From positions 107,945 through 171,944 of the forward strand of contig JAWKNI010000005.1 in assembly GCA_041391785.1 (NCBI GenBank): 64,000 nt of DNA. Direction: 5' to 3'. A program made the translations under genes and the position numbers. The notes under the pieces are model-generated. The model saw only the letters and a program-made list of their open reading frames with translations. It ran no database searches and had not been told where the DNA came from. The stretch's first letter is position 1; every line of letters starts with the position of its first letter. The DNA is from Flavobacteriales bacterium (GTDB lineage Bacteria > Bacteroidota > Bacteroidia > Flavobacteriales_F > PHOS-HE28). Of the stretch, positions 17,191-57,420 are shown in pieces.

Positions 17191-17280
17191 AATTCCCGGG
17201 GCTCCCCAATATTGGTGACCGCTTCGGAACGGTCCGTTGGCATACATTTGAACGTTCTGACACTTAACCGATCAAAACCC

Positions 17281-28190: not shown

Positions 28191-29354
28191 TCAGGTCCTC
28201 CTCCCTTTCCACCGCGGTCGGACCGCCAAGGACAGCAGCGCCACCAATGGTGCGTACACCACGTAGGCCATCAACGCAATGAGAGCCCATGCCGCTGCGC
28301 ACCGTTCCCGACCGTGATGCGGATCCGCCCGGCTGAAGAACATGCGCATCGCTCCGCCGAGGAGCAATGTGGGGAACAGCCATGCGCACCATGCGGCCGC
28401 CAGTACGGTTGCTGTATGGAACAGGCCGTTGCCGATCCGCGCATGCAGGAACACCTGGACCGTAAGGACCGCCAGCCCCCATGGTAGCAGGATGGTGGAA
28501 AGTGCCGCCAGGAGACCGGAGAAGTCGTGATACGCACGCATCTTACCGGCCCACCGCAGCCGCTGCCTGATGAACCCGGTCCAGGTCATTTCCGCCTGTA
28601 CGCTCACGACCACTGCTGGCTCGAGCAGGTAGCGCACCTCCCGACGCGCTTTCCGCATGCGTCCCAGCAGGAACATGTCATCCCCGCTGGCCCAGCGATC
28701 CCCGGCATAACCGCCGACCGCAAGGAACGCTTTGCGATCGAAGGCAAGGTTGGCACCGTTGGCCAATGCCGGTGTCCCACCCAATGCACTACCTGCCGTG
28801 GCACCTTGCAGGGCATATTGCTCCTCCTCTTGCAGGCGTCCAAGCGCTGAAGGTCCACCGACAGTGCGGACCGGCATCAGCATCAACGCGGGCTTTTCGT
28901 GCTGCCAGGCGCGCGCCAGGGACGCCGCACGCTCGGCACCACAACGTGCATCCGCATCGGTGAGCAGGATCAGATCACCCGTTGCATGGCTCACTCCGGT
29001 GGTGATCGCCGCCTTTTTTCCATTCCCCTGGGACCGTACCAGCCGGGCTCCGGGCCAGTGGCGCATCAAGCCTTCCACGAGTGCCGCTGTGCCATCCGTA
29101 CTTCCATCATCGACAACAATGGTCTCCAACAGGTCTTTCGGGTAACGCTGCGCATGGAGGTCCTGCAACAGCGGCACGATGGAGGAAGCGGCATCACGCG
29201 CCGGAACGATCATCGATATCCGGACCGGCTCCCGATCGTTGCCGACCGGCATGGTCACGTTTCCAGCGATCCGTCTGCGCCACCCTGCCAATACCGAGGC
29301 ATACATCAGCGCGGCCGCAAAGGCCAGCAAGGCGAGAACGGTCCAAAGGGTCAT
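28191..29354 (-). CDS. Family 2 glycosyltransferase (membrane-anchored)
   Basis: ISMIVPARDAASSIVPLLQDLHAQ...ETIVVDDGSTDGT GT2 DxD-type motifs; start ATG 29354 (MTLWTV...). Confidence 0.85.
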   Translation of the reverse strand: MTLWTVLALLAFAAALMYASVLAGWRRRIAGNVTMPVGNDREPVRISMIVPARDAASSIVPLLQDLHAQRYPKDLLETIVVDDGSTDGTAALVEGLMRHWPGARLVRSQGNGKKAAITTGVSHATGDLILLTDADARCGAERAASLARAWQHEKPALMLMPVRTVGGPSALGRLQEEEQYALQGATAGSALGGTPALANGANLAFDRKAFLAVGGYAGDRWASGDDMFLLGRMRKARREVRYLLEPAVVVSVQAEMTWTGFIRQRLRWAGKMRAYHDFSGLLAALSTILLPWGLAVLTVQVFLHARIGNGLFHTATVLAAAWCAWLFPTLLLGGAMRMFFSRADPHHGRERCAAAWALIALMAYVVYAPLVALLSLAVRPRWKGRRT

Positions 29355-30319
29355 GCGTTGTTGGTACGGACGCGTGCCATGAGAAGAATGACGCTGCCCA
29401 CCATTGCCGGTAGCACCACATTGATCGACCACAGGATCGCCGTTGCGAAGAGCACGGGTACCTCTTCACCCCCCAAAGGCACCAGCAATGAGACCGCCGC
29501 GGTGCCCCGTATCCCAAGCTCGGTGATCATGACGGTGGGGATCAATGTCGAGACCAGGTAGATCACCGGCACTGCGCACGCCGCGTCGACAACGCTCAGG
29601 CCGGGATCGAACGTCGTCAAGAGTAGCACGAACTGTCCGGTGAAGACCACATATCGCAACGCGCTCAACGCCAACACCCCGTACAGCCGTTCGGGTTCGT
29701 AGGCATTCAGGACCGCCGATGCGCGCTCCGCGCGGTGCAGGAAGGGGATCAGCAGGAGCAACTGCCGAAGCAACCCGGGATGCAGGTACAGGGCCAGCGC
29801 ACCTGTGGACACCAGCACCGTAAGGCTGAGGATGGCGGTGGTGACCCATCCGCTCGTCCAAGGGAAAGGTCGACCAAGACCATACAAGGCCAGCAAGCCG
29901 AGCCCGCCCATGACCAACGTGATCACGAACTGGGCCACGCTGCCCAGGGCGGTCGCAAAACCGCCCTGCACCCTGTGATGTGGTTCCAGGAAGAGCACCC
30001 GTCCAAGGAATTCGCCGGTCCGGTTGGGGGTGATGAGCCCAACACTCGTGCCCGCGACGGTCGCCAGCAGCGATCGCCCTGCACCGATGCGTTCCACCGG
30101 CAGCATGAGCCATCGCCATTTCCGTGATTCGATGCTCCAGTTCACCACCATCAGCAGTACCGTTACCAACAGTACGATCGGAAACAGGCCATTCTCCCGC
30201 ATGCGCCGGAAGGCCTCCAGCGCCGCTGTACCTTTGACCGTGGTGAGCTGCGCGTGCAGGAACGCGCAGGCAAGGAGAAACACCCCCCATCGGAAAACGA
30301 ACAAAAGCTTGCGTCCCAC
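29351..30319 (-). CDS. Flippase-like / LPG-synthase-TM-region family membrane protein, translationally coupled (ATGA) to downstream GT2
   Basis: Polytopic protein RKLLFVFRWGVFLLACAFL...SIESRKWRWL...; stop TGA overlaps GT2 ATG. Start uncertain: GTG 30319 gives typical ~322 aa; in-frame ATGs at 30382 and 30541 would overlap ruvC. Confidence 0.6.
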   Translation of the reverse strand: MGRKLLFVFRWGVFLLACAFLHAQLTTVKGTAALEAFRRMRENGLFPIVLLVTVLLMVVNWSIESRKWRWLMLPVERIGAGRSLLATVAGTSVGLITPNRTGEFLGRVLFLEPHHRVQGGFATALGSVAQFVITLVMGGLGLLALYGLGRPFPWTSGWVTTAILSLTVLVSTGALALYLHPGLLRQLLLLIPFLHRAERASAVLNAYEPERLYGVLALSALRYVVFTGQFVLLLTTFDPGLSVVDAACAVPVIYLVSTLIPTVMITELGIRGTAAVSLLVPLGGEEVPVLFATAILWSINVVLPAMVGSVILLMARVRTNNA

Positions 30320-30923
30320 GGATAACGGTTCAGAGCACGGTGCCCCCACCAAAAGTAGGCCGGTACCAACGGAGCGCATCATCCTGGGCATCGACCCCGG
30401 GACCACGGTGATGGGGTTCGGGGTGTTGCTGGTGCATGGACGCAGCATTCGCTTGTTGGAGGCCGGATCGGTGCGGTTCCCCACAGGTGACGACCATACG
30501 CTAAAGCTGCGGGCCATTTTCGATCGGACGATCGAGATCATTGAACGGCATCATCCGGATGAATTGGCGATCGAAGCGCAGTTCTTCGGAAAGAACGTAC
30601 AGAGCATGTTGAAGCTCGGCAGGGCCCAGGGCGTGGCCATCGCAGCAGCGTTGCACCGTGAACTTGCCGTGGTGGAGTATGCACCGAAACGGGTGAAGAA
30701 GAGCATCACAGGGAATGGCAGCGCCAGCAAGGAACAGGTGGCGGCCATGCTGCTCGGCATCCTGGGCCTGCGCACGCTACCGGAGAGCACGGATGCCACC
30801 GATGCCGTGGCCGTGGCCGTCTGCCACCATTTCGCGAACGCCGGGAACAGGTCGCAGGGCACAGCTGCCGCTGGCAGGAATTGGAAGGCCTTCCTGCGCG
30901 ACAACCCGGACCGTATCCGTTAA
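30309..30923 (+). CDS. ruvC: Crossover junction endodeoxyribonuclease RuvC
   Basis: ...ERIILGIDPGTTVMGFGVL...EAQFFGKN...DATDAVAVAVCH canonical RuvC. No ATG/GTG within 15 codons upstream of ERIILG; nearest in-frame canonical start is TTG 30309. Confidence 0.75.
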   Translation: MRPTDNGSEHGAPTKSRPVPTERIILGIDPGTTVMGFGVLLVHGRSIRLLEAGSVRFPTGDDHTLKLRAIFDRTIEIIERHHPDELAIEAQFFGKNVQSMLKLGRAQGVAIAAALHRELAVVEYAPKRVKKSITGNGSASKEQVAAMLLGILGLRTLPESTDATDAVAVAVCHHFANAGNRSQGTAAAGRNWKAFLRDNPDRIR

Positions 30924-31312: not shown

Positions 31313-31786
31313 TCAGCGTGTGATCTCCAACACCTCGAATTTCGTGCTGCCCGTCGGCGTGATCACCTCGGCGACCTCGCCTACGCTCTTGCCCAGCAAA
31401 CCCTTGCCGATCGGTGAGGTGACACTGATCTTGCCGGTCCGCACATCGGCCTCACTCTCGGCCACGAGTGTAAAGCTGCGCTCCGATCCGTTGACCACCA
31501 TCCGCACCTTCACCGTTGTGTGGATGTACGCCTTGCTGGAGTCCAATTGGTCCGTATCGATCACACGCGCACTGGCCACCACCTCCTCCAGCTTTGCGAT
31601 ACGGGCCTCCAGCAATCCCTGCTCCTCCTTGGCGGCATGGTACTCGGCGTTCTCGCTCAGGTCGCCCTTGTCCCGGGCATCAGCGATCTGCTGGCTCAGG
31701 TGGGGACGGTCCACGGTCCGCATCTGGTGCAGCTCGTCCAACAATTTCTTGAGCCCTTCTTCGGTGTAGTAGGCCGTCGTACTCAT
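31313..31786 (-). CDS. greA: Transcription elongation factor GreA
   Basis: MSTTAYYTEEGLKKLLDELHQMRTVDRPHLSQQIADARDKGDLSENAEYHAAKEEQ... 157 aa; track ORF over-extended upstream. Confidence 0.9.
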   Translation of the reverse strand: MSTTAYYTEEGLKKLLDELHQMRTVDRPHLSQQIADARDKGDLSENAEYHAAKEEQGLLEARIAKLEEVVASARVIDTDQLDSSKAYIHTTVKVRMVVNGSERSFTLVAESEADVRTGKISVTSPIGKGLLGKSVGEVAEVITPTGSTKFEVLEITR

Positions 31787-31856
31787 GGCCGATGTGTTTG
31801 GTGATATAAGCAGAGAGGACCCCGAAAGGTCCTCTCCCAAAGTTAATGATCCAGTG

Positions 31857-32912
31857 TCAGAGGCTGATCCGGATACCGATGGTATGCACCCCCGAGAACG
31901 GGTTGGTGGTGCGGTAACCGTAGTCCAAAGCCAGTGCGGACTTCTTCTCCTCCCCGAAGGGGAAATCGACGCTGATACCGCCTGAAGGACCCGTGAACAC
32001 CGTGGTGCGGTCCTCGTCGCCGGTGATGCCCTTCTCGTAAAGGTAGCCGCCGCGCAGGTGGAACATCTTCTTGAAAGCGTATTCGACACCCACGACACCC
32101 TGGTCCTTGGTGAACGAGTTGGACACGAACGTTCCTGCGAACGTGATGCGGTGCATCTCACCCACATTCAGGTCGTATGCCGCCCCGATGTTCAGCAACG
32201 AGGGGATCTCGAAATTGTCCGAACGCTGCTCCAGTGTGAGCTGATCGCTTCCCTGGACCAACAAGCCCTGCACTGCCAGACCATCCCCGGAGAACTGCAT
32301 GGCAGGACCGACGTTCTTCAGCGCGATGCCGAAGTGCACGTTATCCGTAGGGCCGGTCACGTAATGGATGCCTGCATCAAAGCAAACACCTTGCGTGCGC
32401 ACGTTCGCGATCGACTCGGAAACCACGCGCACCAACAGCCCGCCATGGATGCTGTTGGAGAAGCTCTTCGCATACGACAAGCCGATGTTCGCCATGCTCG
32501 GGCTGAACGTGCCCCGACCACCTTCCGGCGAGTCGTATGTGGTCACTTCCAGGTCACCGAAGGACATGGTGGTCGCCGAGATGCCCAGCACTCCGGACTC
32601 CCCGAGCTTCTGCCCGATGCCCACGCTGTTGATGGTGACACCGGAACCTTCGAGCCAACGCGTGTTGGTGAAGAGCACCTCGGTCTTGTTCACCATGGCG
32701 AGCCCGGCGATGTTCCCGTACATCGCCTCGACCCCGCGCACCGATGCCGAGTTGGCAAGGCCCCAACCGGCAGAGCGTGCCCATGGGTTGATCAGCAGTT
32801 GCGTCGCACCGGCCGAACCAGCACGGTCCGGATTACCCGCATGCGCAGGCTGGCTCGCGACAGCTGCGATCACCCCGAGGATCGCTGTGGACCATTTCAT
32901 CGTTCGAATCAT
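31857..32912 (-). CDS. FadL/TodX-family outer-membrane beta-barrel, T9SS-associated (PorP/SprF- or PorV-like)
   Basis: Signal peptide; N-terminal LLINPWARSAGWGLANSASVRGVEAMYGNIAGLA resembles the FadL/PorV-family N-terminal motif; ends aromatic-rich ...GIRISL; 27 bp downstream of a T9SS cargo gene. Confidence 0.6.
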   Translation of the reverse strand: MIRTMKWSTAILGVIAAVASQPAHAGNPDRAGSAGATQLLINPWARSAGWGLANSASVRGVEAMYGNIAGLAMVNKTEVLFTNTRWLEGSGVTINSVGIGQKLGESGVLGISATTMSFGDLEVTTYDSPEGGRGTFSPSMANIGLSYAKSFSNSIHGGLLVRVVSESIANVRTQGVCFDAGIHYVTGPTDNVHFGIALKNVGPAMQFSGDGLAVQGLLVQGSDQLTLEQRSDNFEIPSLLNIGAAYDLNVGEMHRITFAGTFVSNSFTKDQGVVGVEYAFKKMFHLRGGYLYEKGITGDEDRTTVFTGPSGGISVDFPFGEEKKSALALDYGYRTTNPFSGVHTIGIRISL

Positions 32913-32939
32913 TTTCCTAGATCTCGTTAGGTCGTCCGC

Positions 32940-35900
32940 TTAGAAGTTCTGGAGGTCCAGTGGTCGCAATGCGCCGAACCATTTGAGCACCTTCTCCCCT
33001 ACGCCGGGAACGTCGATGTGACAGATGTACACACCACCCGCGATCGGGATGTTGCTGGCGTTCTTCAGGTCCCAATCCAGGTAGGTCAGGTCATTGTCCT
33101 TGCGGAACTTGCGCACCAGCGTACCACTGACGTTGTAGATGCTGATCGTGCAGACCTGTGGCAGGTTGATGAACTTTACCCGGTTGTCCAAACGGGTCTG
33201 CTCATAGCCGCTGAATCCGTAGTAAGGGTTGGGCACCACATTGATGATGTCCAGGGATGCATCGGCCACGGCATTGTCGTTCGTTCCCACCTCGTAGCCC
33301 GCTGTACCGAAGGTGTACAGCGGCAGTCCGTTGTTGCGGGTGGGACCGATGGGCTGCGGGGTACCGGCGTAGTCCCCGTAGCTCTTGTACGGCTGTTTGG
33401 TGTTCAGTACGATAGTAACATCGGTCGCCAGCAGCTCCGTGCCCGGCAGCCTGATGGCACTGCCCACCCAGGAGACCGCGCGGAACAGACGGCGCAGGGG
33501 CTCCGGCTGGGTGGTCTGGATCAGCCCGTGGATGAACCGGCACTCGTCGTAGGCCGGCACACGGTTGTCCGCATTCGCCAGGCGACGGTCGTTCTTGAAC
33601 ACATAGATCCAATGGCAGCCACCGAATACGGGATCGCCATTGCTGGTGTAGAGCACATCGCTCGGGTTCCAGATCATGTCCCGGCCGATCTCACCACCCC
33701 AGAAGCTGTTCTCACCGTAGGCCATGTTCAGGCGCTCTCCGGTCTCGAGGTCGATGGCATAACCGGGGAACCAACCAGCTCCTGTGGGTTGCGCACCGCC
33801 AAGAGTGGCCTCATCCTCGTTCACACCGGGCGAGCCGGACTTGCGACCGTTCTTGTCGATGCTGGGCGAGGCACGCAGCGAAAGCTTCGCAGCACCGCCT
33901 TCGGAGAGGCTCACATCGGCCTCCTGCTCAAGCACCACGGCGCGCGTCCATTTGCTCTTGTCCGCGGTGATCACCAACTGGATGCTCGGGGTCTCCGCGA
34001 TCGGTGATACGCTGGACTGCGAGAGCGAGACCTGCTGGGTGTTGCTCGGTTGGAACGGTGCCTGCCCGACCAATGCCCATGGCGCCCATGTACCACCGAG
34101 GATGGCCTCGTACAACTGATCGTTGTCCTTGCCCACACGGTCGTTGTAGATCACATCCGCATCCAGTGCTTCGAAGATGCCGGAACGGATCCAGTTCTGT
34201 GGATTCACACCTTCAGCGTCGGAGATGCCACCGAACCAGGCCAGGGATTGATCCTTGTGAACAAGCGTACCGGAGCCGATGGGTTCCGTGAAGATGTCAC
34301 CGGTACCACCCGAACCCGTGGCCGTGTACTGCACCTGCCCGATGCGGACACTGAGGCCCCACTTCAGCAGCAACTGCTCATAGCGCAGGTCGATCGCACG
34401 ATCGCTGAACACGGTGTCGTTGGTACTCAGGTTCACGATGTACCAGTAGGCGTCATTCAAGTCACCCGGTGTGATGCTGTCCTGGAACCACACCTCGAAC
34501 TGTGCATCGGGGACGGCCAACGGATCGACCACGCGCACTTCGATGGGTCCGGAACCGACCTTGTACTTCAGCTGGTCCTGGCGCCATGGCGAACCGGAAA
34601 GGATCGCGTCCACGGTGCTTTGCTCCATCTCCAACCGCAGGCCACCATTGCCCTGGCCTTCAAGGCGTGTGATCTGCATGGCATCACCGAAGTCGGCATT
34701 CTGTGCGGTGCCTCCCTGCTCGGGGGATGGCTTGTGCGGAATGCCAACGTAGGAGCGGATCGAACCGAACGCTGCCTTACGACCCGCCACGTACGGGAAG
34801 GCCTGGCCCGTACCGTCCGCAGGGTTGAATGGTGCGTAATTGTTGTATCCGTAGCTGATCGCCAGGTAGTAGTACGACTTGAAGTTCACCAATGCCGGAT
34901 TGCCTTGAGCGAACCTGTCCTCCGTGATGCGGATCGCGTGCACCACCCCGGCATCAGCACCATTCACCTGCTCACTCGGAACGGTGAGTCCCAACTGATC
35001 ATTGAAGTCGTAGTTGATCAACTGACCGACGCCGTCCTCAAGGTCACCTTGATAGACCAGTCGGGCACTTTCGATATCGTCCAGGTCGGCCACACTCACG
35101 GTCGCATCGCGCAACTGATACACCTTGTACCCCTGGAAGCGGTACTCGCGGTCGTACATCTCACCATTCGGGCCTTGCTCCGGGATGATGGGGTCCACTT
35201 CCACATACTCTTCGTTCTCGTTGTTGCTACCCTGCGGGTTGACCAGGTAAATGATCAGCTCCTTGTCCAACTCCTGGATCACGAGGTCCGGTGCATCGGG
35301 ACCATCAAGGATCTTGAAGCAGTTGTCGAACAACGCCTGGGCCTTGTCATCCGCAACGCGCAGCGGGCCTACGCTGGCTGCCGCACCACCGGAGGAGGCG
35401 CGTGCGAACACGACACCCACGGTAACGTTGTTGTATGCACCGGGCTCCAAGGTGAAGGGACCGGCACTTTGCACGAAACGACGGTCCGGCAATGCAGGGG
35501 TCGGCGTGGTCTCGCGCCAATCCGCCTGGGTCACACAGTTCGTACCCCAGCCCACCACATCGGAGTCCCATGGGAACATGTAATAGGCCCGCACTGCATT
35601 CGGATCCTCCGAATAGCCATTGCCACCATAGGTCTGTGGGCGGTTGTTCTTCCAGACGCTTTGCAGGTAATTGTAGAAGTGCGAGGCATTGTCCGGGTCG
35701 GTCAGGTTGGCGTTCCCCTCGCGGTTGAAGTAGATGAAGGCACGCATGCCGAAGCGCTCGTTGTCGGGAACCGAGTCTCCATAGCCGATGCCCAGGCCTT
35801 TGTACGGGATACCATCCTGGTCACGAGCGATGATGCAATCCAACACCTCAGCGTTCGTGAGTGGACCAGGGTTGTCCACGCCGTCCGCATCCTGGTAAGG

Positions 35901-37052
35901 ACCTTCGAAGAAGTCCACCCCGATGGCCGGGGGTTGCGCGCCATAACCGATGCTCTGCCCTTGCTGGCACGTGGCGTCAACGTCCTGCCAGTTGTACGCG
36001 AAGCCGAGACCGCGTTGGATGTCGCAACCCACGAAGTCATCATCCGGGCAACCCAGATCGGCATCAACGAAGTGGCCGAAATAGGTGTTCGTCAGGGTCT
36101 GTGAACCCTGGTTGATGACCGTGTAGTTGTAGAAGGTCATGTTGTTGATCTCGTCGTTCGCATTGAACGAGAAGGCCTGAGCACGCACTTCCAGACCGAT
36201 CGGCTGCCCCAAGGTCTCCGTGTGGGCATCGCCTTTGTCATTGAAGATCCAGTAGATGTTGTTGTCACCGAAGAGGGATACAGGGTCCTCACGACGCTTG
36301 TTCTTGCAGTCCTCCACCGAGGTCTCGAACCCGTAGTCGGGATAATCACCGGAGAACGGGTCGTAGAATTCATCGCCATCCACGTCGATGAACGGGGCGA
36401 GGTGCAGGTCCTGTCCGGCATCCACGTTGCCGTTCGCCGGCCACTCCACGAAGGCTGGGGGCACGCTGTACCCGTCCGGGAAGATCTCATCGAGGTCGCA
36501 ATCCGGATCCTGCTGGCAGTTGTACCACTGGATGTGTGCTTCCGCCTGCGCCCGGCTGGTGGTGTAGAACTTGTCGTACTCTGCGCACACATCGGAAGTG
36601 ACGGACGCAAGACCATCATTGGTCAGGGGCCCGGGCCAGAAGTCGTTACCGTCCGCCCGATAGAGCACCGCCGCGATCTTCAACTGACCCGCACTGGAGA
36701 GGCCACCCATCCACAGCGAACCGGCATAGATGGCGTTCGGACCGCTGAAATCATCGGTCTTCGGCACTTCATAACCGGAGCGCGCGGTACCACCACGACG
36801 GGTCCATACGTTGCCACCGTTCTCGATCACCGCACGCACGTTGTTGAAGTTCAACTGCGTCACCTGCGATGCCGGTGAACAAGCGGCCGCCTTGGCAGCA
36901 CCCACCGCGCCGGAGTTGCCGGCCATGCCTGCCTGGCGTGGCGGTTCCTTGGCGTGGACGATGGCGCCCAGGGTCAACGCGAGGCACAGAGCGAAGGTTC
37001 TGGTAGGAATTGCGCTGTGTAAGCCTTTCATGATCTGCAGTCGTTTGTTCAT
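32940..37052 (-). CDS. Very large (1370 aa) secreted T9SS cargo protein with C-terminal sorting domain (type-B-like)
   Basis: Signal peptide; last ~100 aa VVPNPYYGFSGYE...FINLPQVCTISIYNVSGTLVRKF...LDWDLKNASNIPIAGGVYICHIDVPGVGEKVLKWFGALRP resembles T9SS CTD (xPNxxxG.., NLP..IY..G, W....P..GxY pattern of gliding-motility-type CTD). ATG overlaps upstream TBDR stop (ATGA). Confidence 0.7.
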   Translation of the reverse strand: MNKRLQIMKGLHSAIPTRTFALCLALTLGAIVHAKEPPRQAGMAGNSGAVGAAKAAACSPASQVTQLNFNNVRAVIENGGNVWTRRGGTARSGYEVPKTDDFSGPNAIYAGSLWMGGLSSAGQLKIAAVLYRADGNDFWPGPLTNDGLASVTSDVCAEYDKFYTTSRAQAEAHIQWYNCQQDPDCDLDEIFPDGYSVPPAFVEWPANGNVDAGQDLHLAPFIDVDGDEFYDPFSGDYPDYGFETSVEDCKNKRREDPVSLFGDNNIYWIFNDKGDAHTETLGQPIGLEVRAQAFSFNANDEINNMTFYNYTVINQGSQTLTNTYFGHFVDADLGCPDDDFVGCDIQRGLGFAYNWQDVDATCQQGQSIGYGAQPPAIGVDFFEGPYQDADGVDNPGPLTNAEVLDCIIARDQDGIPYKGLGIGYGDSVPDNERFGMRAFIYFNREGNANLTDPDNASHFYNYLQSVWKNNRPQTYGGNGYSEDPNAVRAYYMFPWDSDVVGWGTNCVTQADWRETTPTPALPDRRFVQSAGPFTLEPGAYNNVTVGVVFARASSGGAAASVGPLRVADDKAQALFDNCFKILDGPDAPDLVIQELDKELIIYLVNPQGSNNENEEYVEVDPIIPEQGPNGEMYDREYRFQGYKVYQLRDATVSVADLDDIESARLVYQGDLEDGVGQLINYDFNDQLGLTVPSEQVNGADAGVVHAIRITEDRFAQGNPALVNFKSYYYLAISYGYNNYAPFNPADGTGQAFPYVAGRKAAFGSIRSYVGIPHKPSPEQGGTAQNADFGDAMQITRLEGQGNGGLRLEMEQSTVDAILSGSPWRQDQLKYKVGSGPIEVRVVDPLAVPDAQFEVWFQDSITPGDLNDAYWYIVNLSTNDTVFSDRAIDLRYEQLLLKWGLSVRIGQVQYTATGSGGTGDIFTEPIGSGTLVHKDQSLAWFGGISDAEGVNPQNWIRSGIFEALDADVIYNDRVGKDNDQLYEAILGGTWAPWALVGQAPFQPSNTQQVSLSQSSVSPIAETPSIQLVITADKSKWTRAVVLEQEADVSLSEGGAAKLSLRASPSIDKNGRKSGSPGVNEDEATLGGAQPTGAGWFPGYAIDLETGERLNMAYGENSFWGGEIGRDMIWNPSDVLYTSNGDPVFGGCHWIYVFKNDRRLANADNRVPAYDECRFIHGLIQTTQPEPLRRLFRAVSWVGSAIRLPGTELLATDVTIVLNTKQPYKSYGDYAGTPQPIGPTRNNGLPLYTFGTAGYEVGTNDNAVADASLDIINVVPNPYYGFSGYEQTRLDNRVKFINLPQVCTISIYNVSGTLVRKFRKDNDLTYLDWDLKNASNIPIAGGVYICHIDVPGVGEKVLKWFGALRPLDLQNF

Positions 37053-40000
37053 CAGAAATCGAAACGGACACCAAGACGGATGGTGCGGGGTGCACCGTAG
37101 TTATCGGGAGTATTGATCTTCAGCGCGTACAGGTCGCGGAACGAATCGGGATCGATCTGGGAACGATCCGTGAGCTGGGCGAGGTAGCCATCGTTGTCCG
37201 GCGAACCCGTGTAGCGATACACCCCGGTGATGTTCTGTGTGTTGAAGACGTTCGTCACCAGGAGGTAGATGTTCAGGTTGGCGCTCTTGGCCTTGTCCCC
37301 TTCCTCACCACCGAAGCTCAGGGTGATGTCGCGGTCCAGCTGAAGGTCGGTGGTGAACTGCCAGGGTAGACGCGCACCGTTCAGCGTACCATCCAGGCGG
37401 TAGTTCGTGTTCTCCACGGCCTCGTTCACCACCTGGCTGCTGCGGCTGTACGGTGTTCCGCTTCCGAGGATGCCCACCACGTTCAGACCGGTGCGCTGGA
37501 AGATGGGCTTGCCGAAGAGCATCGGACCGTTGTAATCCTTGCCGGCACCATAGCGGAAGTCCATCGTCGCGGCGAAGCGGTGGCGCTGGTCGAAGTCGAG
37601 CGGCACGATGGTCCGCAGGTTGGCCTGGCCGGAGTTCACCAGGCTCACGCCGGTGTTCGGACCTGAACCGGTACCGTCGGCGAACTGCAGGGTGTAGCTC
37701 GCGCGCATCCACACGTTGCCGGTGCGACGGAGGTCGAAGGATGCGGTGAAGCCCTTCACCGTACCGAAGTCGATGTTCTCATAGGTGCGGTAGGAACGCG
37801 GCCATGCGTTGTTGCGGTTCACGATCTGGATCTGGTCGCGCAGTTCGCGGTAGAACGCGGAAAGCTTCAATGAAGAGGATTTGCTCAACACCTGCTGGAA
37901 GCCCAGTTCGTAGTCGATCGTCTTGGTGGGGCTCAGGTCCGGGTTGTTCAGGATGTTGCCCGTGGTGAAGTTGTAGGCATACTCCAACAGGTCACCCCGC
38001 GATTGCAGCGCGTTCGGACGCTGGGTGAGGACATCGTAGTGGGCGAAGAACACGGCCTCATCCGAGATCGGGAAGGAGAATGCGACGCGGGGCATCACGT
38101 TCACCACCGGGGTGTAATCCCGGAAGGCCTTGCGGCTCAATTCGGAACCCGGCAGGTCATCCGCATCGCCACCCTCGATCAGGTACGGGCGGATCTGGCC
38201 GGCCTCCTGCACGGAGTTGCCTCCATCATTCAACTCCACACCGGTGGGGCTGTACCAGATGTCGCCATCGCGGTAGCCCTTGATCGTGTTCGGTGAGCCG
38301 AAGTTGTCCACATACACTACGAAGTCATCGCCGATGTTGCCCGGGCGGTTCGCCAATTGTGCGGCGATGTCAGCATCGGGCACAGCCGATCCGGCGGTGT
38401 ACGCCTCCTGCCACAGGTACGGATCCGTGAGCACGTTCTGGTTCGCATCGTAGCGGTCCACACGTACCCCGACGTTGAAGATGATGTCGTCGAAGGCGAA
38501 CTTGTCCATCACATATCCAGCGATGTAGATCGGCTCGAACGGCGCCTGCAGACGGGTGAAGTTCCCCTTCTCGTCCTTGGCGGTGAAGAAGCTGTCGAAG
38601 CTGGGTTTGCTGGTAAGCTTGTTGCCCAGGTGGTCATAACCCACGTAGCTCACGAGGTTGTTCCCGTTGTTGATCAACTCATCCGGTGCGAACATGTCCA
38701 GGGAGAAAACACCCGGATCGAGGGCATCGATGTCGATGAAGTCCGCTCCGTTCGGATCCAGGCCGAGCGCTTCACGCAGGCTGCGATCGAACGTGGACTG
38801 GCGGGAGAGGTCGTTGTTCCGGGAGTAGAAGTAGAACGGCAGGGAGTTGGGGATCTGCACGATGTTCGTCACAGCGGTATCCTGCCACTCCAGGATGTGG
38901 GCATTGCCCAGTGCGCGCGCCCGCGTCCACAGGCCGATCGGGGCCAGGTCGTAGCGGCGCTGGGTGAGCTGTTCATATTCCACCCCGACCGAAACGGCGT
39001 GCTGGTTGATGTCCGCACTACCAAACGCCGTGAACCGGATCTGATCGTTCTGGCGCTTGCGGTACTCCGCCCCGTTGGGGTCATCGATGAAGCCGATGTT
39101 GTTCCAGATGTCGTAAAGACCCCGTGGACGCAGACCGTTCCAGATCACCCCACGGGACTGGGTCTCGGCGAAGTTCTGGTAAAAGCCGACGTAGTTCGGA
39201 TCGGAACCTTGCGGCGCACCGAAGAGTTCCTGGATGGGGAAGTTCTCCTGCGGGAAGGCGTTGAAGTAGAAGTTGTTGATCGAGGCGAGGTCGGGGTTCT
39301 GGGTACCCGGTGTGAAGGTGACGAGGGTGTCGCGCTCCCCGATCTGCACCCACCGCGAATCACGCAGTTCGAACCGCGGTGCACGGTAGGTGTTGAACCG
39401 ACCGACATAACCGTAGTCGAAGAAGTTGTCGCCGTGCACGAAATCCTCCACATTGCTTTGGTAGCGTGAGTAATCCAACTGCAGCGAGTAGAAGGCGTTC
39501 TGGATCGTGGAGCGCTTCTCCTCCTCCTCGGTACGGTTGAGGAAGCGTTGGGTGAACTTCACGAAGCCCCTCCAGGTGGTCTCCTTCACCCGGTAGTTGT
39601 TCTCCGCGTTCAACAGCGCGTTCTTCCGGTTGTAGTCCTGGCGGTTACCGTAATCGAATGACCCACCCACGGAGAGGTTGATGGTGGGCGTGGTGGTGAT
39701 GTCCAACTTGCCGGATGCCAGGTAGCTGGTCTTACCTGCGTTCTGGCGGGTCTTCAAGGTCTCCGTGTCGCCGGTGCGCAGGAATTCGCTGCTGTACCCA
39801 AGGGTGAAATCATTTGCACCGCTGGGGAGCAGGCGGGCGGGGTCGGAAAGAATGGCATCCCGCACCTCGGGTCGCACGCGGATGTCCCCGATGTAGGACG
39901 GGGCATCATCGACGACATCGGTGAACTGACCGGAAACGAAGAACCCGATCAGGGGCTTGTCCTTGTTGCCAAGGCTGTCCTTCTTGAAGAGGATAGGACC

Positions 40001-40813
40001 CGAGAGGCTGGCTTCCACCTGATTGAAGGCGAACTTGTCCAGACCGACGATGTCCGTGATGTCCTTGCCGACCTTGTAGCCGGAGGTAAGGTATTCGACG
40101 CCTCCGAAGAAATTGCGGCTGGGACCACGCGTGGTGATGTTCACCAGACCACCGGTCACGTCACCGTAGTTCGCAGGCACACCACCGGTGATCACCTGCA
40201 CCTCCTCGATCGCGCTCTTGGGCAGGCCCGTGCCCGCACCGGCCGGCACTTTCACACCATCGATATAGTAATAGGTGTTCTCCGTACGTGCACCGCGAAT
40301 GCTGATGCCACCATCGGTACCGGCCGTGCTGGCGCCGGCAACGGTCGTCGCAATGCTGGCCGCCGAACGACCGGGCATCTTGGCGATGTCCTCCCGGGTC
40401 ACGGTACCACCGGATGCACCACCATCGCGCTGGATCAGCGGAACATTGTACTGCACCACTTCGAACTCCTTCAGTTCGATACCGGAATTGAGGCCGATGT
40501 TGAGGAAGGTGATGGTGTTGCTGTTGACGACCACCCCTTGTTGCTTGGACGGCTGGTACCCGGTGTATGCGACGATCACGTCATAGGTACCCGGTTCGAT
40601 CGGTTTGATGAAGTATTCCCCGTCGAAGTCCGTGGACCCGCCGGTCACCTGAACGCCATTGCGTTCGATCACGACACTTACGAACGGAAGAGGTTCACTG
40701 GTCTTCTTATCGGTGACCTTGCCCTTGAGGCTGCCGGAACCCGTTTGGGCACTTGCGGCGAGCACACAGCAGATGGAAAGGGCGATTGTAGAGAATAGTC
40801 TTCTCAACATCAA
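37052..40813 (-). CDS. Oversized TonB-dependent receptor (1253 aa) with N-terminal CarboxypepD_reg domain
   Basis: Signal peptide, GSLKGKVTDKKTSEPLPFVSVVIERNG (CarboxypepD_reg), plug domain (TVTREDIAKMPGRS...ISIRGARTENTYYYIDGV), C-terminal ...RTIRLGVRFDF. Confidence 0.85.
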   Translation of the reverse strand: MMLRRLFSTIALSICCVLAASAQTGSGSLKGKVTDKKTSEPLPFVSVVIERNGVQVTGGSTDFDGEYFIKPIEPGTYDVIVAYTGYQPSKQQGVVVNSNTITFLNIGLNSGIELKEFEVVQYNVPLIQRDGGASGGTVTREDIAKMPGRSAASIATTVAGASTAGTDGGISIRGARTENTYYYIDGVKVPAGAGTGLPKSAIEEVQVITGGVPANYGDVTGGLVNITTRGPSRNFFGGVEYLTSGYKVGKDITDIVGLDKFAFNQVEASLSGPILFKKDSLGNKDKPLIGFFVSGQFTDVVDDAPSYIGDIRVRPEVRDAILSDPARLLPSGANDFTLGYSSEFLRTGDTETLKTRQNAGKTSYLASGKLDITTTPTINLSVGGSFDYGNRQDYNRKNALLNAENNYRVKETTWRGFVKFTQRFLNRTEEEEKRSTIQNAFYSLQLDYSRYQSNVEDFVHGDNFFDYGYVGRFNTYRAPRFELRDSRWVQIGERDTLVTFTPGTQNPDLASINNFYFNAFPQENFPIQELFGAPQGSDPNYVGFYQNFAETQSRGVIWNGLRPRGLYDIWNNIGFIDDPNGAEYRKRQNDQIRFTAFGSADINQHAVSVGVEYEQLTQRRYDLAPIGLWTRARALGNAHILEWQDTAVTNIVQIPNSLPFYFYSRNNDLSRQSTFDRSLREALGLDPNGADFIDIDALDPGVFSLDMFAPDELINNGNNLVSYVGYDHLGNKLTSKPSFDSFFTAKDEKGNFTRLQAPFEPIYIAGYVMDKFAFDDIIFNVGVRVDRYDANQNVLTDPYLWQEAYTAGSAVPDADIAAQLANRPGNIGDDFVVYVDNFGSPNTIKGYRDGDIWYSPTGVELNDGGNSVQEAGQIRPYLIEGGDADDLPGSELSRKAFRDYTPVVNVMPRVAFSFPISDEAVFFAHYDVLTQRPNALQSRGDLLEYAYNFTTGNILNNPDLSPTKTIDYELGFQQVLSKSSSLKLSAFYRELRDQIQIVNRNNAWPRSYRTYENIDFGTVKGFTASFDLRRTGNVWMRASYTLQFADGTGSGPNTGVSLVNSGQANLRTIVPLDFDQRHRFAATMDFRYGAGKDYNGPMLFGKPIFQRTGLNVVGILGSGTPYSRSSQVVNEAVENTNYRLDGTLNGARLPWQFTTDLQLDRDITLSFGGEEGDKAKSANLNIYLLVTNVFNTQNITGVYRYTGSPDNDGYLAQLTDRSQIDPDSFRDLYALKINTPDNYGAPRTIRLGVRFDF

Positions 40814-41060
40814 CGGTAGGTTTTACGTTCTTCGGAACTGCGCAACGAGGGGGCGCTAATATAGCAAGTTCCCGTAACCGCAAGAATTTCATTCTGCCTT
40901 GTCAGTCGCGGGCTGCGTGAGGTGCCAATGCTCTTCGCACGGATGGATATGGAGCAGGACATGGGCATCGCCGGTGTCGTTGCGCTAAAGATATCGTCAA
41001 TGCAATGTGAAGAAGGACATTCCGATCCGCGAAGCTTCGCCGATCCTATACATGTCCACC

Positions 41061-41357
41061 TCAGCGCTTGCGGCTGAACAACCGGCTGAAGAAGCCGTCC
41101 GTGTGCCTTCCGGACCCCTTGCGCTCGGCGCGCTTGGTGTTGCGCTTGATGCGCTTGCGGGTGTCCTTGCTCTGGATGTCCAGGTGGCGCTTGCGTCCTT
41201 CCTTGTCCCGCTTCTTGTCCGCCTTCTTTTCTTCCTTGGCCTTCTTCTCCAGCAATTTCTCCTGCTTCTTCCGGCTGATCCCGTCCTGGGCATGGTTCGC
41301 CGCAGGAATGGCAGTGATCAACAGGAGTACCAGTATGGATCGAAGAAATGCGCGCAT
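41061..41357 (-). CDS. Small secreted Lys/Arg-rich protein (98 aa), hypothetical
   Basis: Convincing signal peptide MRAFLRSILVLLLITAIPAANHAQ followed by KKQEKLLEKKAKEEKKADKKRDKEGRKR...; could also be a high-GC frame artefact. Confidence 0.35.
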   Translation of the reverse strand: MRAFLRSILVLLLITAIPAANHAQDGISRKKQEKLLEKKAKEEKKADKKRDKEGRKRHLDIQSKDTRKRIKRNTKRAERKGSGRHTDGFFSRLFSRKR

Positions 41358-41426
41358 GTTCGGTACAAGGATAACGCACCGATCCTTCGCAACGTACTTC
41401 CCTACATTTGTGTGCGTTACCCGAAC

Positions 41427-41855
41427 ATGTTCGTGAAGTCCGGATACCTCTTCCTGCTGACAATTGCGGTGGTACTGACGGCCTCCTGCCGGAAGACCGA
41501 ACGCGCTGGTGTGCCCCTGACACCGGTGGACATCAGCATCAATGTGAACAATCCATCCTATGCGGACATCGCCGTACCCGGCGGGTGGCTCTACCTCACC
41601 GGTGGATCACAGGGGATCATCGTGTACCGCACTTCGCCGGACGCCTTCGTTGCCATGGACCGTCACTGTCCCTACCAACCGGCTGAACTGTGTCGCGTGG
41701 TCGTGGATGAGAGCGAGATCATAGCCCGGGACACCGCCTGCTGCCATTCCGCATTCCTGATCGTCGATGGCAGCGTCTCTGAAGGTCCGTCGGCGCTTCC
41801 GTTGCAGCGCTACAACACCTCCTTCAACGGGACCACGCTGCGGATCTACAACTAG
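41427..41855 (+). CDS. Hypothetical lipoprotein (142 aa) with Cys/His-containing C-terminal half
   Basis: MFVKSGYLFLLTIAVVLTASC lipobox; ...DRHCPYQ...TACCHSAF...; the upstream 140 codons of the track ORF are considered noncoding. Confidence 0.5.
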   Translation: MFVKSGYLFLLTIAVVLTASCRKTERAGVPLTPVDISINVNNPSYADIAVPGGWLYLTGGSQGIIVYRTSPDAFVAMDRHCPYQPAELCRVVVDESEIIARDTACCHSAFLIVDGSVSEGPSALPLQRYNTSFNGTTLRIYN

Positions 41856-43279: not shown

Positions 43280-44077
43280 ATGGCAGCGCACCGCGATCGG
43301 GCATCTGGCCGAGAGGCTCCGTATGTTCGCGGTCCTTTGGGGCCCGTACTCCGGCATATCGAGACCGCTCGCGCCACCGGCAGGAAATTGCTGGCGGTAT
43401 TGATCGACCCCGACCTGGGTGAGGATGGAGCGCGGTTGGAGCGCACCGTGCAACATGCCTGCATGGCGAAGGCCGACCTGATCTTCGTAGGTGGAAGCCT
43501 GCTCACCTCGGCGGCATTCGATCGTTGTGTGGCACTCGTGAGGCAATGGAGCGATCGCCCCGTGGTCCTGTTCCCCGGCAGCCCCGCCCAACTGAGCGCA
43601 CATGCGGATGCGGTGCTTTTCCTGAGCCTTATCAGCGGTCGGAACGCCGAATTGTTGATCGGGCACCATGTGACGGCCGCACCGATCGTGAAGGCACTGG
43701 GCATCGAGGCGCTTCCCACGGGATACATGCTCGTGGACGGTGACCGACCGACCACCGTGAGCTACGTGAGCCAGACCTCCCCGATCCCGCACAACAAACC
43801 GGCCATCGCAGCGGTGACCGCCCTTGCGGGGGAGTTACTGGGCCTGCGGACCATCTATTTGGATACGGGAAGTGGAGCCGACCGGACCGTGCATCCTGAA
43901 ATGGTGCGTGCCGTGCGTGCAGCGGTCGATCTCCCCATCATCGTAGGCGGGGGGATCCGTGATGTGGATGGCGCCCGAGCACTTTGTGATGCCGGGGCGG
44001 ATGTGATCGTGGTGGGCACCGCCTTCGAGGAGGATCCCCAGCGGATCTTCATGATGAGCGAAGCCGTGCATCGCTGA
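43280..44077 (+). CDS. Geranylgeranylglyceryl/heptaprenylglyceryl phosphate synthase family (PcrB/GGGPS-like)
   Basis: ...[12 protein letters not shown]...ADLIFVGGS...[10 protein letters not shown]...IIVGGGIRD; start ambiguous (ATG 43280 leaves only 33 bp to divergent ahcY; TTG 43337 alternative). Confidence 0.65.
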
Positions 44078-44088
44078 CCGGTCCTTGC

Positions 44089-45201
44089 TCAGGCCCGCTT
44101 CCGATAGCTCAGGACGGCAAGTCCATTGATGGCCAAAGCGAATGCAGTGATCGCCCCGAAGTGCTTCGCGATGTCACGCGCACCGCTTCCTTTCAGCAGC
44201 ACCATGCGTACCACCTCGACGAAATAACTGACCGGATCGAACCAGGTGATGCGCTGCGCCCAGGCCGGCATGTTGTCGATGGAGGTGAACAAGCCGCTCA
44301 TGAGCACGAAGATCACCAGGAAGAACCAGGAGACGAACATGCTCTGCTGCTGGGTGTCGCTGATCGTACTGATGAGCAGGCCCAGCCCCAGCATCACCCA
44401 GAGGTAGACCGCTGCGAACGCGAAAAGCAATGGTATGCTCCCCTCCATCGGTATGCGGAAAGCCACCTTGCCCACGATGAGGCCGACGGCCAGGAGGAAC
44501 AAGCTGATGAACCAGAATGGAAGGAGCTTGCCGAGAATGAACTGCCACTTCCTGATCGGGGTGACATTGAGCTGCTCGATCGTACCCAGTTCCTTTTCGC
44601 GCACGATGTTCATGCTGCTCAGGAACATGCCGACCAATGTGACGAGCACGACCAGGAGACCGGGAACCATCAGGTTCTTGTAGTTCATCCGCATGTTGTA
44701 CCAGAAACGCGGGATGGCCTGCACCGGTGGACCCGTGGCAGTGGACGAATGCATGCGTTGCACGATGCTCACCTGCTCATCGGCGATGATCGATCGCACA
44801 TAGATCAGGACGAGGCTGGCGAACTGCCCATCCACTCCGTTGAGGTCGAGCATCACCGGTGCATGCATGGTGCTCCGAATGTCCTTCTCGAACCGGTTCG
44901 GTATGCGCAGGAAGGCATCCGTACGCCCACCGTCCAGTGCGTCCATGCCTTCCTTGAAACCGCCGAACCCCTCCTGCACGTGGAAGAGATCCGAGGCCTC
45001 CAGCCTGTGCACCAGCGCACGGGACATCGCGCTACGGTCCATGTCATTCACAAGCAAGCGAACGTTGCGCACCTCGAAATCCGCCGCGTGCACAAGGATG
45101 AGCAACTGGGCGACCGGTGCCACGAAGATGATCGGCAGCATGCCCTTGTTCCGGAAGATCTGCAGGAATTCCTTGCGCAGCATATGCAGCACGGTCCTCA
45201 T
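44089..45201 (-). CDS. ABC-2 family transporter permease
   Basis: MRTVLHMLRKEFLQIFRNKGMLPIIFVAPVAQLLIL...; 6 TM C-terminal domain. Confidence 0.8.
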   Translation of the reverse strand: MRTVLHMLRKEFLQIFRNKGMLPIIFVAPVAQLLILVHAADFEVRNVRLLVNDMDRSAMSRALVHRLEASDLFHVQEGFGGFKEGMDALDGGRTDAFLRIPNRFEKDIRSTMHAPVMLDLNGVDGQFASLVLIYVRSIIADEQVSIVQRMHSSTATGPPVQAIPRFWYNMRMNYKNLMVPGLLVVLVTLVGMFLSSMNIVREKELGTIEQLNVTPIRKWQFILGKLLPFWFISLFLLAVGLIVGKVAFRIPMEGSIPLLFAFAAVYLWVMLGLGLLISTISDTQQQSMFVSWFFLVIFVLMSGLFTSIDNMPAWAQRITWFDPVSYFVEVVRMVLLKGSGARDIAKHFGAITAFALAINGLAVLSYRKRA

Positions 45202-46298
45202 TGCAGGCGTACGTTGAATTTGCGAATGCTCACGGCCAGCAGGAAAAGACACATGCCGATGAGGATGACCGTCTGGGGCCAAAGCACTTCCATCCCGACA
45301 CCCTTCAACATGATCCCGCGCAGGATGATGATGAAATGCTTGGCCGGCATCACGTTGCTGACCACCTGCAACGGGAGCGGCATGCTGCTCGTGGGAAAGA
45401 TGAAACCACTGAGCAGGATCGTCGGCATCATCAGCACGAACAAGGAAAGCATCAATGCCGTCTGCTGGTTCCTGGCGATCGTACTGAACAACAGGCCCAG
45501 GCTCAACGCGGTCAGTATGAAGAGCAGGCCCTCGCCCGCCAGCAACAGGTAGCTTCCGTGCATCGGCACATCGAAGAGCAGACGGCCCACGCTGAATACG
45601 AAGGTGGCGTTGACCAGGGAAAGCAAGAGGTAAGGCACGGCCTTGCCCAGGACGATCATCACGGGGCGCAAAGGCGATACGAGCATGATCTCCATGCTCC
45701 CATATTCCTTTTCCCGCGCGATGCTGACCGATGTGAGCATCGCGGAGACGAGCATGAGCACGATGGTGATCACCCCCGGTACGAAGAGGTAGACACTCTT
45801 CATCTCAGGATTGTAGTGCATGCGGTGCTGCACGTTGATGACCTCCACGGAAGGGGCGACCCGGTACCGTCCGGACCATTTGGCGATCATCTGCCCTGCG
45901 TAGCCGGTGATGATGCTGGCGACGTTAGGGTCCGAAGCGTCGGCGATCAGCGCGATGCTGGCCCTACCTTCCTCGAAGGAGCGTGCGAAGTCGGGACCGA
46001 TCTCCACCACCATCTTCGCAGCACCTTCCTCAAAGACCCGTTGGATCTCCGGGGGCGCATGCAATGTGCCGGCATGCATGAAGTAGCCCGAGGCGAAAAG
46101 GGAATTGATCAGATCGGTGCTGCGGACGTCCCCACTGCGATCGAGCACCGCCACCTTTGCCTCCTTCACCTCGGTATTGATGGCATAGCCGAAGAGGATG
46201 ATCTGGAGCACCGGCATGCCGAACAGGACCAGCAGGGTCCGCCGATCCCGCAGAATGTGCAGGAACTCCTTTCGCACGAAGGATCGGAAGGTCTTCAT
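45198..46298 (-). CDS. ABC-2 family transporter permease (second)
   Basis: MKTFRSFVRKEFLHILRDRRTLLVLFGMPVLQIILF... Confidence 0.8.
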   Translation of the reverse strand: MKTFRSFVRKEFLHILRDRRTLLVLFGMPVLQIILFGYAINTEVKEAKVAVLDRSGDVRSTDLINSLFASGYFMHAGTLHAPPEIQRVFEEGAAKMVVEIGPDFARSFEEGRASIALIADASDPNVASIITGYAGQMIAKWSGRYRVAPSVEVINVQHRMHYNPEMKSVYLFVPGVITIVLMLVSAMLTSVSIAREKEYGSMEIMLVSPLRPVMIVLGKAVPYLLLSLVNATFVFSVGRLLFDVPMHGSYLLLAGEGLLFILTALSLGLLFSTIARNQQTALMLSLFVLMMPTILLSGFIFPTSSMPLPLQVVSNVMPAKHFIIILRGIMLKGVGMEVLWPQTVILIGMCLFLLAVSIRKFNVRLQ

Positions 46299-50676: not shown

Positions 50677-50808
50677 TTGGGTAACAAAGGAACACAGATC
50701 TACCCATACGTCCAAATACCTCGCGGACGATCCATTGGATCGATCGTATGGACCAGTGGAACACCTCGCCTACCTTCACCGCCCATCAACGAACACCGCC
50801 CGGTCCGC

Positions 50809-54832: not shown

Positions 54833-54908
54833 GGGGAGGGGATTCAGGATACCAAAACTACCCTCCAACCCTTTCATGCCGCAATAGAACCTTCGTTACA
54901 ACCCCAGG

Positions 54909-57290: not shown

Positions 57291-57334
57291 GGTACTCCGT
57301 ATCGATGTCGTTGCACGGAGGTACCCACCCACTG

Positions 57335-57420
57335 GCGGCACTGTTCCCTTCGCAGCATTACCTGCGCAGGTTCATCGGGTGTGATCTCAGCCCATGCGGT
57401 AGGGCACCCCGTTGCTTGAC
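57335..57420 (-). promoter_or_regulatory. TPP (thiamine pyrophosphate) riboswitch, THI element
   Basis: Minus strand: caacGGGGTGCCCtaccgcatgggCTGAGAtcACACCCgatgAACCTGcgcaGGTAATGCtgcGaAGGGAAc matches THI-box consensus (GGGGTGCCC...CTGAGA...ACCC...ACCTGATCNGGNTAATGCC...AGGGA); ~45 nt upstream of TBDR ATG. Confidence 0.85.

Follow-up and report, generated by a model that had tools for sequence, protein, structure and literature searches.

Current type IX secretion system (T9SS) models assign type A C-terminal domains (CTDs) to PorV, which is held to be their only shuttle, and type B CTDs to dedicated PorP/SprF shuttles (PMC12618676). The surface by which ordinary type A CTDs contact the translocon is poorly conserved save for one lysine close to the C-terminus, the only conserved type A residue in contact with PorV (PMC10994853). 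PorZ and PorU are the two T9SS proteins with uncleaved CTDs, held by PorQ and PorV, respectively (PMC10202324, PMC10947112). In Porphyromonas gingivalis PorQ has been proposed to collect a single client, PorZ, from the translocon; the porQ and porZ genes of this organism carry distant locus tags, PG0602 and PG1604 (PMC5445135). In this work we have analyzed a stretch of 64,000 nucleotides from a Flavobacteriales bacterium (contig JAWKNI010000005.1, positions 107,945 to 171,944), referred to as the window, which encodes on the minus strand, between positions 31,857 and 40,813, a TonB-dependent receptor (TBDR), a very large protein designated here BIG, and a PorV-like barrel.

The genes of this trio make up a conserved, operon-like unit, as had been proposed in the original prediction made from the letters of the window. 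Judging by the sequences of the products, we give about even chances to the trio being one ancient outer-membrane assembly, in which BIG would be docked by the PorV-like barrel beside the TBDR and act as the partner of the latter in substrate capture. Full-text literature searches found no paper on such a module, in agreement with the earlier supposition that it had not been described. Each single element has a precedent and it is their combination that appears to be undescribed: a third subfamily of the PorV family, a hyper-conserved protein with an atypical CTD from a giant unannotated family and a divergent TBDR appear together, fixed across orders.

Predicted products of the three genes

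The last residues of BIG (about 100) had been taken for a T9SS sorting domain. On the model TIGR04183 this domain scores 16.7 bits, under the cutoff of 23 and without a Pfam match (PF18962), whereas three canonical CTD proteins of the same window reach 30-46 bits; at E ≤ 0.01 the model is matched by eight of 26 BIG homologs. The comparison of profiles was decisive and upheld the homology to type A CTDs. When the BIG CTD was aligned by hhalign with 36 canonical CTDs collected from the window and related loci, a probability of 93.9% was obtained (E 1.5e-7, 73 columns), with the PNP, IY..G and G.Y motifs in register, and in the global mode Lys1357 of BIG falls at the canonical lysine-rich C-terminal strand. 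A hidden Markov model (HMM) of the same 36 domains scores BIG CTDs at 7-14 bits, always at the same position. The PorZ CTD is matched by 12 of the 26 homologs (best E 2.8e-5) and more weakly by BIG itself, at the C-terminus of the PorZ model (E 0.053); distant BIG homologs reach up to 42 bits on it and match the PorU CTD as well. The type B model TIGR04131 found no match in BIG (E ≤ 0.1) or in the 26 homologs, and the type B, SprB-like reading of this domain has to be given up. The profiles place it as a divergent type-A-like, or PorZ-like, T9SS CTD.

No part of BIG is better conserved than its CTD, where pairwise identity is 78%, compared with 59% in the body. Beyond the PNP motif this domain bears insertions, and the conserved Lys1357 is followed by an invariant extension of 13 residues, W-F-G-x-x-R-P-x-D-L-x-N-F. 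This tail is kept in lineages whose BIG proteins are 34-37% identical overall, as ...KWFGxMRPxDLDTF in four of five distant lineages and with small changes in the fifth, and it is present in every BIG paralog. No other cargo with a BIG-type CTD was found in 1.5 Mb of related loci.

The product of the third gene scores 143.5 bits on the NCBIfam model PorV_fam NF033709 (cutoff 90), with residues 35-350 covering profile positions 3-325 of 326, and remains under the equivalog cutoffs for PorQ (NF033711, 64.4 vs 220 bits), PorV (NF033710, 58.8 vs 250) and PorV2 (NF052325, 33.4 vs 325). Because it passes the family cutoff and misses those of the equivalogs, we assign it to a separate subfamily inside the PorV/PorQ family, orthologous to neither PorV nor PorQ. 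The PorV half of the earlier assignment to PorV and PorP/SprF was right; the PorP/SprF half and the placement in the FadL family were not, as neither PorP/SprF nor FadL (Toluene_X) models in Pfam or NCBIfam match the barrel at E ≤ 0.1, and Pfam gives no match to it whatever. The identical protein at NCBI bears the name 'PorV/PorQ family protein'. Orthologs of the barrel are 72-90% identical, their N-terminal segment GNPDRAGSAGATQLLINPWARS is invariant, and in 58 loci the gene is located downstream of BIG. Neither profile nor single-sequence searches with the barrel against PDB chains reach PorV. The related loci (1.5 Mb, the loci only) contain no other PorV-family gene.

BIG has a Sec signal peptide, as predicted, and a mostly beta, multi-domain body. 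No Pfam domain was detected in BIG, nor in 26 homologs even at E ≤ 1. The AlphaFold2 model of residues 62-1261 is confident (pLDDT 85.7, pTM 0.69), is mostly beta and contains a galactose-mutarotase-like supersandwich, a fold that suggests carbohydrate binding. Foldseek comparison of this model with the PDB returned marginal matches only, and sequence and profile searches of the PDB returned nothing useful. The idea that BIG is a divergent PorU (NF033707 / Peptidase_C25) was rejected for lack of any gingipain or PorU-like match, and a structural lead to GH174 was uninformative.

More than 3,475 close homologs of BIG, of about 1300-1430 aa, were found. A single-sequence search of a library of 1.84 billion proteins yielded 6,820 clusters (50% identity) at E ≤ 1e-3, including 1,732 at E ≤ 1e-30. 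This family, with about 6,800 clusters and no Pfam domain, is among the larger uncharacterised surface-protein families of environmental Bacteroidota. A distant homolog of 1687 aa annotated as 'YCF48-related protein' (locus L088, 7001-12064, GCA_025056095.1) carries a PSII_BNR beta-propeller in addition. Propellers make up PorZ too, which may be a coincidence or a hint of PorZ-like function. One typical BIG gene (L048, PBNL01000019.1) was deposited as 'Methanobacteriota archaeon isolate SP189', and several other contigs with BIG go under the names 'uncultured Chryseobacterium sp.' or 'Chryseobacterium gleum'; all of them have the look of contigs from metagenome-assembled genomes (MAGs) that were wrongly binned or labelled.

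The TBDR was correctly recognized by its CarboxypepD_reg, plug and barrel domains and its ...RLGVRFDF end. In Pfam it scores above gathering cutoffs for CarboxypepD_reg (53.8 bits), Plug (38.4, cutoff 23.9) and TonB_dep_Rec_b-barrel (41.4, cutoff 27), and it has the Plug PF07715 and barrel PF00593 combination of a TonB-dependent transporter (TBDT). A signal peptide is followed by the CarboxypepD_reg extension (28-116), a TonB-box-like EFEVVQYxVPLI, the plug (135-222) and an enlarged, divergent barrel. The invariant segment ELKEFEVVQYxVPLI between the N-terminal extension and the plug may be a TonB box. This segment and the plug are almost invariant across orthologs, which have 1225-1338 aa and a mean column identity of 73%. 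We consider the barrel domain divergent because its model is unrecorded in many of these orthologs; in the PDB profile search nothing beyond the N-terminal extension and the core of the plug was matched. Neither a SusC/RagA model nor any other equivalog model in NCBIfam matches the TBDR (E ≤ 0.1), so that it lacks the signature of the SusC/RagA subfamily, and the gene downstream of it is not SusD-like.

Organization and conservation of the operon

The three minus-strand open reading frames (ORFs) proposed earlier are real (Table 1), the first being probably shorter by one codon, since its TTG start codon directly precedes an ATG. The junction between the TBDR and BIG genes, described as an ATGA overlap, reads TTC TGA TG AAC; the two genes share a single base, within TGATG. 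Comparison with 16 related loci showed that the seven residues between the overlapping ATG and the next one are unconserved; this stretch contains a stop codon in two of the loci, and the overlapping ATG itself is missing in three. The downstream start, ATG-AAA-GGC (window position 37031), is found in 15 of the 16. Because the intervening residues are unconserved and ATG-AAA-GGC is kept, the true start of BIG is probably at 37031, 18 nt past the TBDR stop codon, and the probable length of the protein is seven residues less than the 1370 initially given. The alignment makes translational coupling by overlap, as originally proposed, doubtful; the spacing is that of a tight operon. The gap of 27 nt between the BIG stop and the start of the PorV-like gene was read correctly. 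No terminator-like sites above the shuffled background were detected between the trio genes in a terminator scan.

When 230 nt upstream of the TBDR gene were aligned for the window and 12 related loci (L002, L003, L007-L011, L014, L016, L023, L025 and L050), about 60 nearly invariant nucleotides were found to adjoin the TBDR start, and the sequence beyond them was unalignable. The conserved block contains a TTTG / TATATTAG pair resembling the -33/-7 elements of Bacteroidota promoters, followed by the leader GCGCCCCCTCGTTGCG...GAACGTAAAACCT. Among the trio genes such an element is conserved upstream of the TBDR only, and it may function as a promoter; a sigma-70 promoter scan gave nothing above the shuffled background. 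The leader is conserved beyond the need of a promoter alone. No Rfam family or riboswitch matches the region upstream of the TBDR. An ORF of 237 aa that abuts the TBDR start (40810-41523, minus strand) was dismissed as spurious, having no family match and no homolog in 80 loci.

Conservation of the trio was followed in GTDB species genomes, a scan of which for BIG yielded at least 600 stretches, 580 of them confirmed; the best 80 loci were kept. In at least 45 of these 80 species-level loci the TBDR, BIG, PorV-like and greA genes are all complete and run collinearly, and the rest are mostly cut by contig ends or hold paralogs. Such an arrangement is far beyond chance. In the 45 loci the mean identity to the window proteins is 58.7% for the TBDR, 53.7% for BIG, 63.9% for the PorV-like barrel and 69.2% for GreA. 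In nearly all loci the PorV-like gene has greA as its next neighbour, which serves as a synteny marker; it is not proposed as a functional part of the module. The synteny anticipated in related genomes was confirmed, usually beside greA.

The trio occurs in every major clade of a neighbour-joining tree, on which lone BIG paralogs form nested subclades. It was also present in all of five distant lineages, with the MAG labels Chitinophagales, Sphingobacteriales, Bacteroidia, Chitinophagaceae and Bacteroidetes. Their TBDRs (1237-1311 aa) are 31-40% identical, BIG proteins (1241-1760 aa) 34-37% and PorV-like barrels (345-395 aa) 39-49%. In four of these lineages the trio is succeeded by greA-HIT, and four have a gene for a 2-hydroxyacid dehydrogenase ahead of it. 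The spacing of the trio genes stays at about 18-40 nt across orders. Since the trio and its neighbours are kept across distant lineages, the module is judged to be ancient and vertically inherited and not a mobile nutrient locus.

Separated partners were met as well. In the Crocinitomicaceae MAG NAT165 there are sister BIG paralogs, one with the TBDR, apart from the barrel gene (L042), and the other with the PorV-like gene and greA. Two BIG paralogs occur in some genomes (L042 and L047, both on PACT01000037.1; L070 and L076 of UBA852). Throughout one subclade of lone paralogs (L044, L048, L051, L062) a gene for a UvrD-like helicase comes before BIG, which gives no functional clue.

The wider neighbourhood, including ksgA, greA, HIT and ruvC, is conserved too; genes for a PcrB-family protein, an S-adenosylhomocysteine hydrolase and a cyclase flank the operon also in L001, which likewise speaks for conservation of the neighbourhood. 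The small basic and lipoprotein-like genes upstream of the TBDR were located by homology and have counterparts in L001. The glycosyltransferase and LPG_synthase_TM genes that make a pair downstream of the trio in the window also adjoin ruvC there. A seven-gene efflux cluster upstream of the operon is unrelated to the trio.

A second adjacency of a TBDR and a T9SS cargo, placed by the original prediction at 52781-57290, does exist, the pair extending to 57341 with 31 nt between the genes. Its CTD is canonical and a PorV-like gene is missing, which makes it a different module. A TBDR beside a T9SS cargo is thus not unique in this genome. In size the second TBDR is near to PorF/CHU_1606. Three further canonical type A CTD proteins in the window mark the organism as rich in T9SS cargo.

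Table 1 Features of the window discussed in the text (aa, amino acids)
Feature	Position	Strand	Description
LPG_synthase_TM-family gene	1969-3048	plus	
Canonical type A CTD protein	17212-18267	plus	Por_Secre_tail 26.5 bits
Canonical type A CTD protein	18498-20312	plus	Por_Secre_tail 46 bits
Family-2 glycosyltransferase	28191-29432	minus	paired with the next gene
LPG_synthase_TM-family gene	29351-30541	minus	
greA	31313..31789	minus	Pfam GreA_GreB_N and GreA_GreB; conserved downstream neighbour
PorV-like barrel gene	31857-32912	minus	351 aa; 347 aa if from Met5, like the NCBI homolog
BIG (middle gene)	32940-37052	minus	1370-aa ORF; 1363 aa if from ATG 37031
BIG C-terminal domain	32943..33266	minus	residues ~1263-1370
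TBDR gene	37052-40813	minus	1253 codons from TTG; likely start ATG 40810, giving 1252 aa
Promoter-like region and leader	40811..40880	minus	directly upstream of the TBDR start; alignment-based
Small basic protein gene	~41067-41315	minus	~99 aa, lysine/arginine-rich
Lipoprotein-like gene	~41478-41852	plus	~144 aa
S-adenosylhomocysteine hydrolase	41924-~43240	minus	upstream of the operon
PcrB-family gene	~43400-44077	plus	geranylgeranylglyceryl-phosphate-synthase-like; upstream of the operon
Efflux cluster, seven genes	44089-50715	minus	TetR regulator, outer-membrane efflux protein, HlyD-family adaptor, two ABC ATPases, two ABC-2 permeases
TPR-adenylate/guanylate cyclase	50458-52770	plus	upstream of the operon
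Second CTD protein	52781-54877	minus	698 aa; canonical type A CTD the only recognisable domain (Pfam 36.7, TIGR04183 44.7 bits)
Second TBDR	54909-57341	minus	810 aa, ~90 kDa; CarboxypepD_reg, Plug and barrel
Canonical type A CTD protein	58144-59967	plus	Por_Secre_tail 30 bits

Proposed assembly and alternative readings

In the assembly that we propose BIG would be exported by Sec and then by the T9SS, with its CTD acting as a permanent docking domain and not as a disposable, cleaved signal. The PorV/PorQ-family barrel would take the CTD over from the translocon and hold it at the cell surface, on the model of PorQ collecting and anchoring PorZ and of PorV anchoring PorU. BIG docked in this way would be positioned beside the plug-containing TonB-dependent barrel, and its beta-rich body with the galactose-mutarotase-like supersandwich would become the extracellular partner of the TBDR, in the simplest case for capturing a substrate for TonB-powered import. 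Anchoring by the T9SS and a PorV-like barrel would then replace the lipid anchor of partners of the SusD/BtuG type. Retention of the CTD, its binding by the barrel, the association with the TBDR and the transported substrate are all what we infer from the three sequences and their arrangement.

The well-supported part of this proposal is that the barrel would be a dedicated partner of the BIG-type CTD, retained for docking as in the PorQ-PorZ pair, since the conservation of the CTD is extreme and selective, the domain resembles retained CTDs, the barrel forms a distinct subfamily and the two are consistently co-encoded. The role of BIG as a capture or lid partner, put forward in the original prediction, is suggested because the linkage of the TBDR and BIG genes is kept when the barrel gene is elsewhere, the plug and TonB-box-like segment are near-invariant and BIG has a domain of carbohydrate type. 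Only tentatively would we speak of a stable three-protein machine in which BIG, permanently bound through a CTD of a third class to a PorV paralogue of its own, is the extracellular partner of a TonB-powered barrel. If it exists, such a machine would be a T9SS-dependent alternative to the lipoprotein-lid design of SusCD, ancient and core to many uncultured Bacteroidota with Flavobacteriales, Chitinophagales and Sphingobacteriales labels. A dedicated pairing of the CTD with the barrel would make high conservation of the CTD together with the KWFGxxRPxDLxxF tail a sequence signature to distinguish retained from cleaved CTDs. The link with the TBDR would bear on whether TBDTs of Bacteroidota can use partners other than lipoproteins, and on what PorF and other TBDR-like proteins do within the T9SS or close to it.

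Several observations weigh against the trio as a capture assembly. The supersandwich fold is widespread and no proof of glycan binding; some BIG paralogs stand alone, with neither a TBDR nor a barrel gene next to them; and the AlphaFold2 model of the barrel, built from 29 close homologs, has a pLDDT of 40.5, so that the 14-strand fold is taken from the HMM match. The locus contains no SusD, enzyme, sigma/anti-sigma or hybrid two-component regulator genes, nor does Rfam find a riboswitch that would hint at the substrate. Conservation approaching that of GreA and a housekeeping neighbourhood fixed across orders are unusual for nutrient receptors. These features of the locus, the likeness of the CTD to those of PorZ and PorU, and the precedent of PorF fit a different function at least equally well, namely that of an accessory or alternative T9SS or surface-biogenesis module, with the TBDR as a PorF-type component, the barrel as a PorQ-type anchor and BIG as a surface component resembling PorZ or PorU, its CTD retained, engaged for example in the handling of surface glycan or lipopolysaccharide (LPS) or in the attachment of cargo. 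PorF (PG0534) is a TonB-dependent-receptor-like barrel needed for T9SS function (PMC5445135), and PorV of C. hutchinsonii co-immunoprecipitates SprA and the TBDR CHU_1606, 33% identical to PorF (PMC8564354). The CTDs of the BIG family match those of PorZ and PorU better than generic cargo CTDs, one distant homolog has a BNR/Ycf48-type propeller as PorZ has propellers, and for the mutarotase-like domain a glycan ligand, for instance a polymer of the LPS type, is conceivable. However, the plug and the TonB-box-like segment of the TBDR are highly conserved, whereas PorF reportedly has no Plug domain. Moreover, the best 80 of more than 580 genome matches and the cluster names that were looked up all belong to uncultured MAGs, so that the model organisms used to define the T9SS components may lack the trio. 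We regard this function as less likely than the capture assembly, but as a serious alternative.

It is improbable that the barrel is a divergent PorV serving as the general type A shuttle of the lineage, with BIG as an ordinary abundant cargo, an unrelated TBDR and a gene order due to neighbourhood inertia. In Flavobacteriia a large CTD protein encoded next to PorV (the porU-porV type, Fjoh_1556/1555, listed in PMC5445135) offers a known precedent for this, and conservation of the ksgA, greA, HIT and ruvC neighbourhood means that synteny alone is no proof of function. The barrel, however, falls far below the PorV equivalog cutoff (58.8 against 250 bits), the BIG CTD is hyper-conserved with a unique extension whereas the canonical CTDs of the window are ordinary, the short spacing of the genes is kept across orders, and the TBDR-BIG pair stays joined away from the barrel gene (L042). 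Very little weight is given to a TBDR that acts outward, as an Oar-like factor in the export or assembly of BIG or of a product made by it, instead of as an importer. As a large receptor of the CarboxypepD_reg type the TBDR presumably resembles Oar-type proteins, but no Oar-related NCBIfam model matches it, and a T9SS CTD with a cognate PorV-family barrel would already explain the export of BIG. What speaks for such a role is a passage in PMC6434023, according to which the Myxococcus TBDT Oar is needed for secretion of the protease PopC.

Comparison with described systems

The proposed docking of BIG beside the TBDR recalls in its geometry the β-barrel assembly machinery (BAM) of Bacteroidota (BamA-BamG-BamH), where an adaptor, a 14-strand barrel of the FadL superfamily, lies packed against a larger one and keeps an extracellular protein in place (PMC12578637, PMC12611786). 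BamG, in contrast, holds lipoproteins and acts outside the T9SS, and no sequence relationship links BAM to the trio locus. Compared by description, PorF (PG0534) and CHU_1606 are TBDR-like barrels tied to the T9SS and PorV (PMC5445135, PMC8564354). PorF has about 92 kDa and is reportedly plugless, whereas the TBDR of the trio has 138 kDa and a conserved plug.

With SusC/SusD and BtuB/BtuG the locus shares a Bacteroidota TBDT that has a CarboxypepD_reg extension and a gene for a large surface partner immediately downstream. It differs in that BIG has neither a lipobox nor the SusD fold, its attachment would depend on the T9SS and a second barrel, the TBDR has no SusC/RagA match and the locus lacks enzymes and regulators like those of polysaccharide utilization loci. 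The original analogy with SprB-SprF of Flavobacterium johnsoniae keeps its functional and genetic logic, a cargo gene adjoining the gene for its own outer-membrane carrier or anchor barrel (PMC12618676, PMC9143113), but the CTD of the trio is type-A-like and the barrel belongs to the PorV/PorQ and not the PorP/SprF family.

The closest parallel is provided by the PorZ-PorQ and PorU-PorV pairs of P. gingivalis, in which a surface protein exported by the T9SS retains an uncleaved CTD and is anchored to a barrel of the PorV/PorQ family, and it is there that the CTDs of the BIG family score best. The body of BIG is unrelated to the propellers of PorZ or the C25 sortase of PorU, the barrel is an ortholog of neither PorQ nor PorV, and it is encoded together with its putative client and a TBDR, unlike porQ, which lies far from porZ by locus tag. 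The service of type A CTDs by PorV has a single known exception, PorQ-PorZ; the BIG-type CTD with its barrel would add another dedicated anchor of the PorV type, and a far more widespread one.

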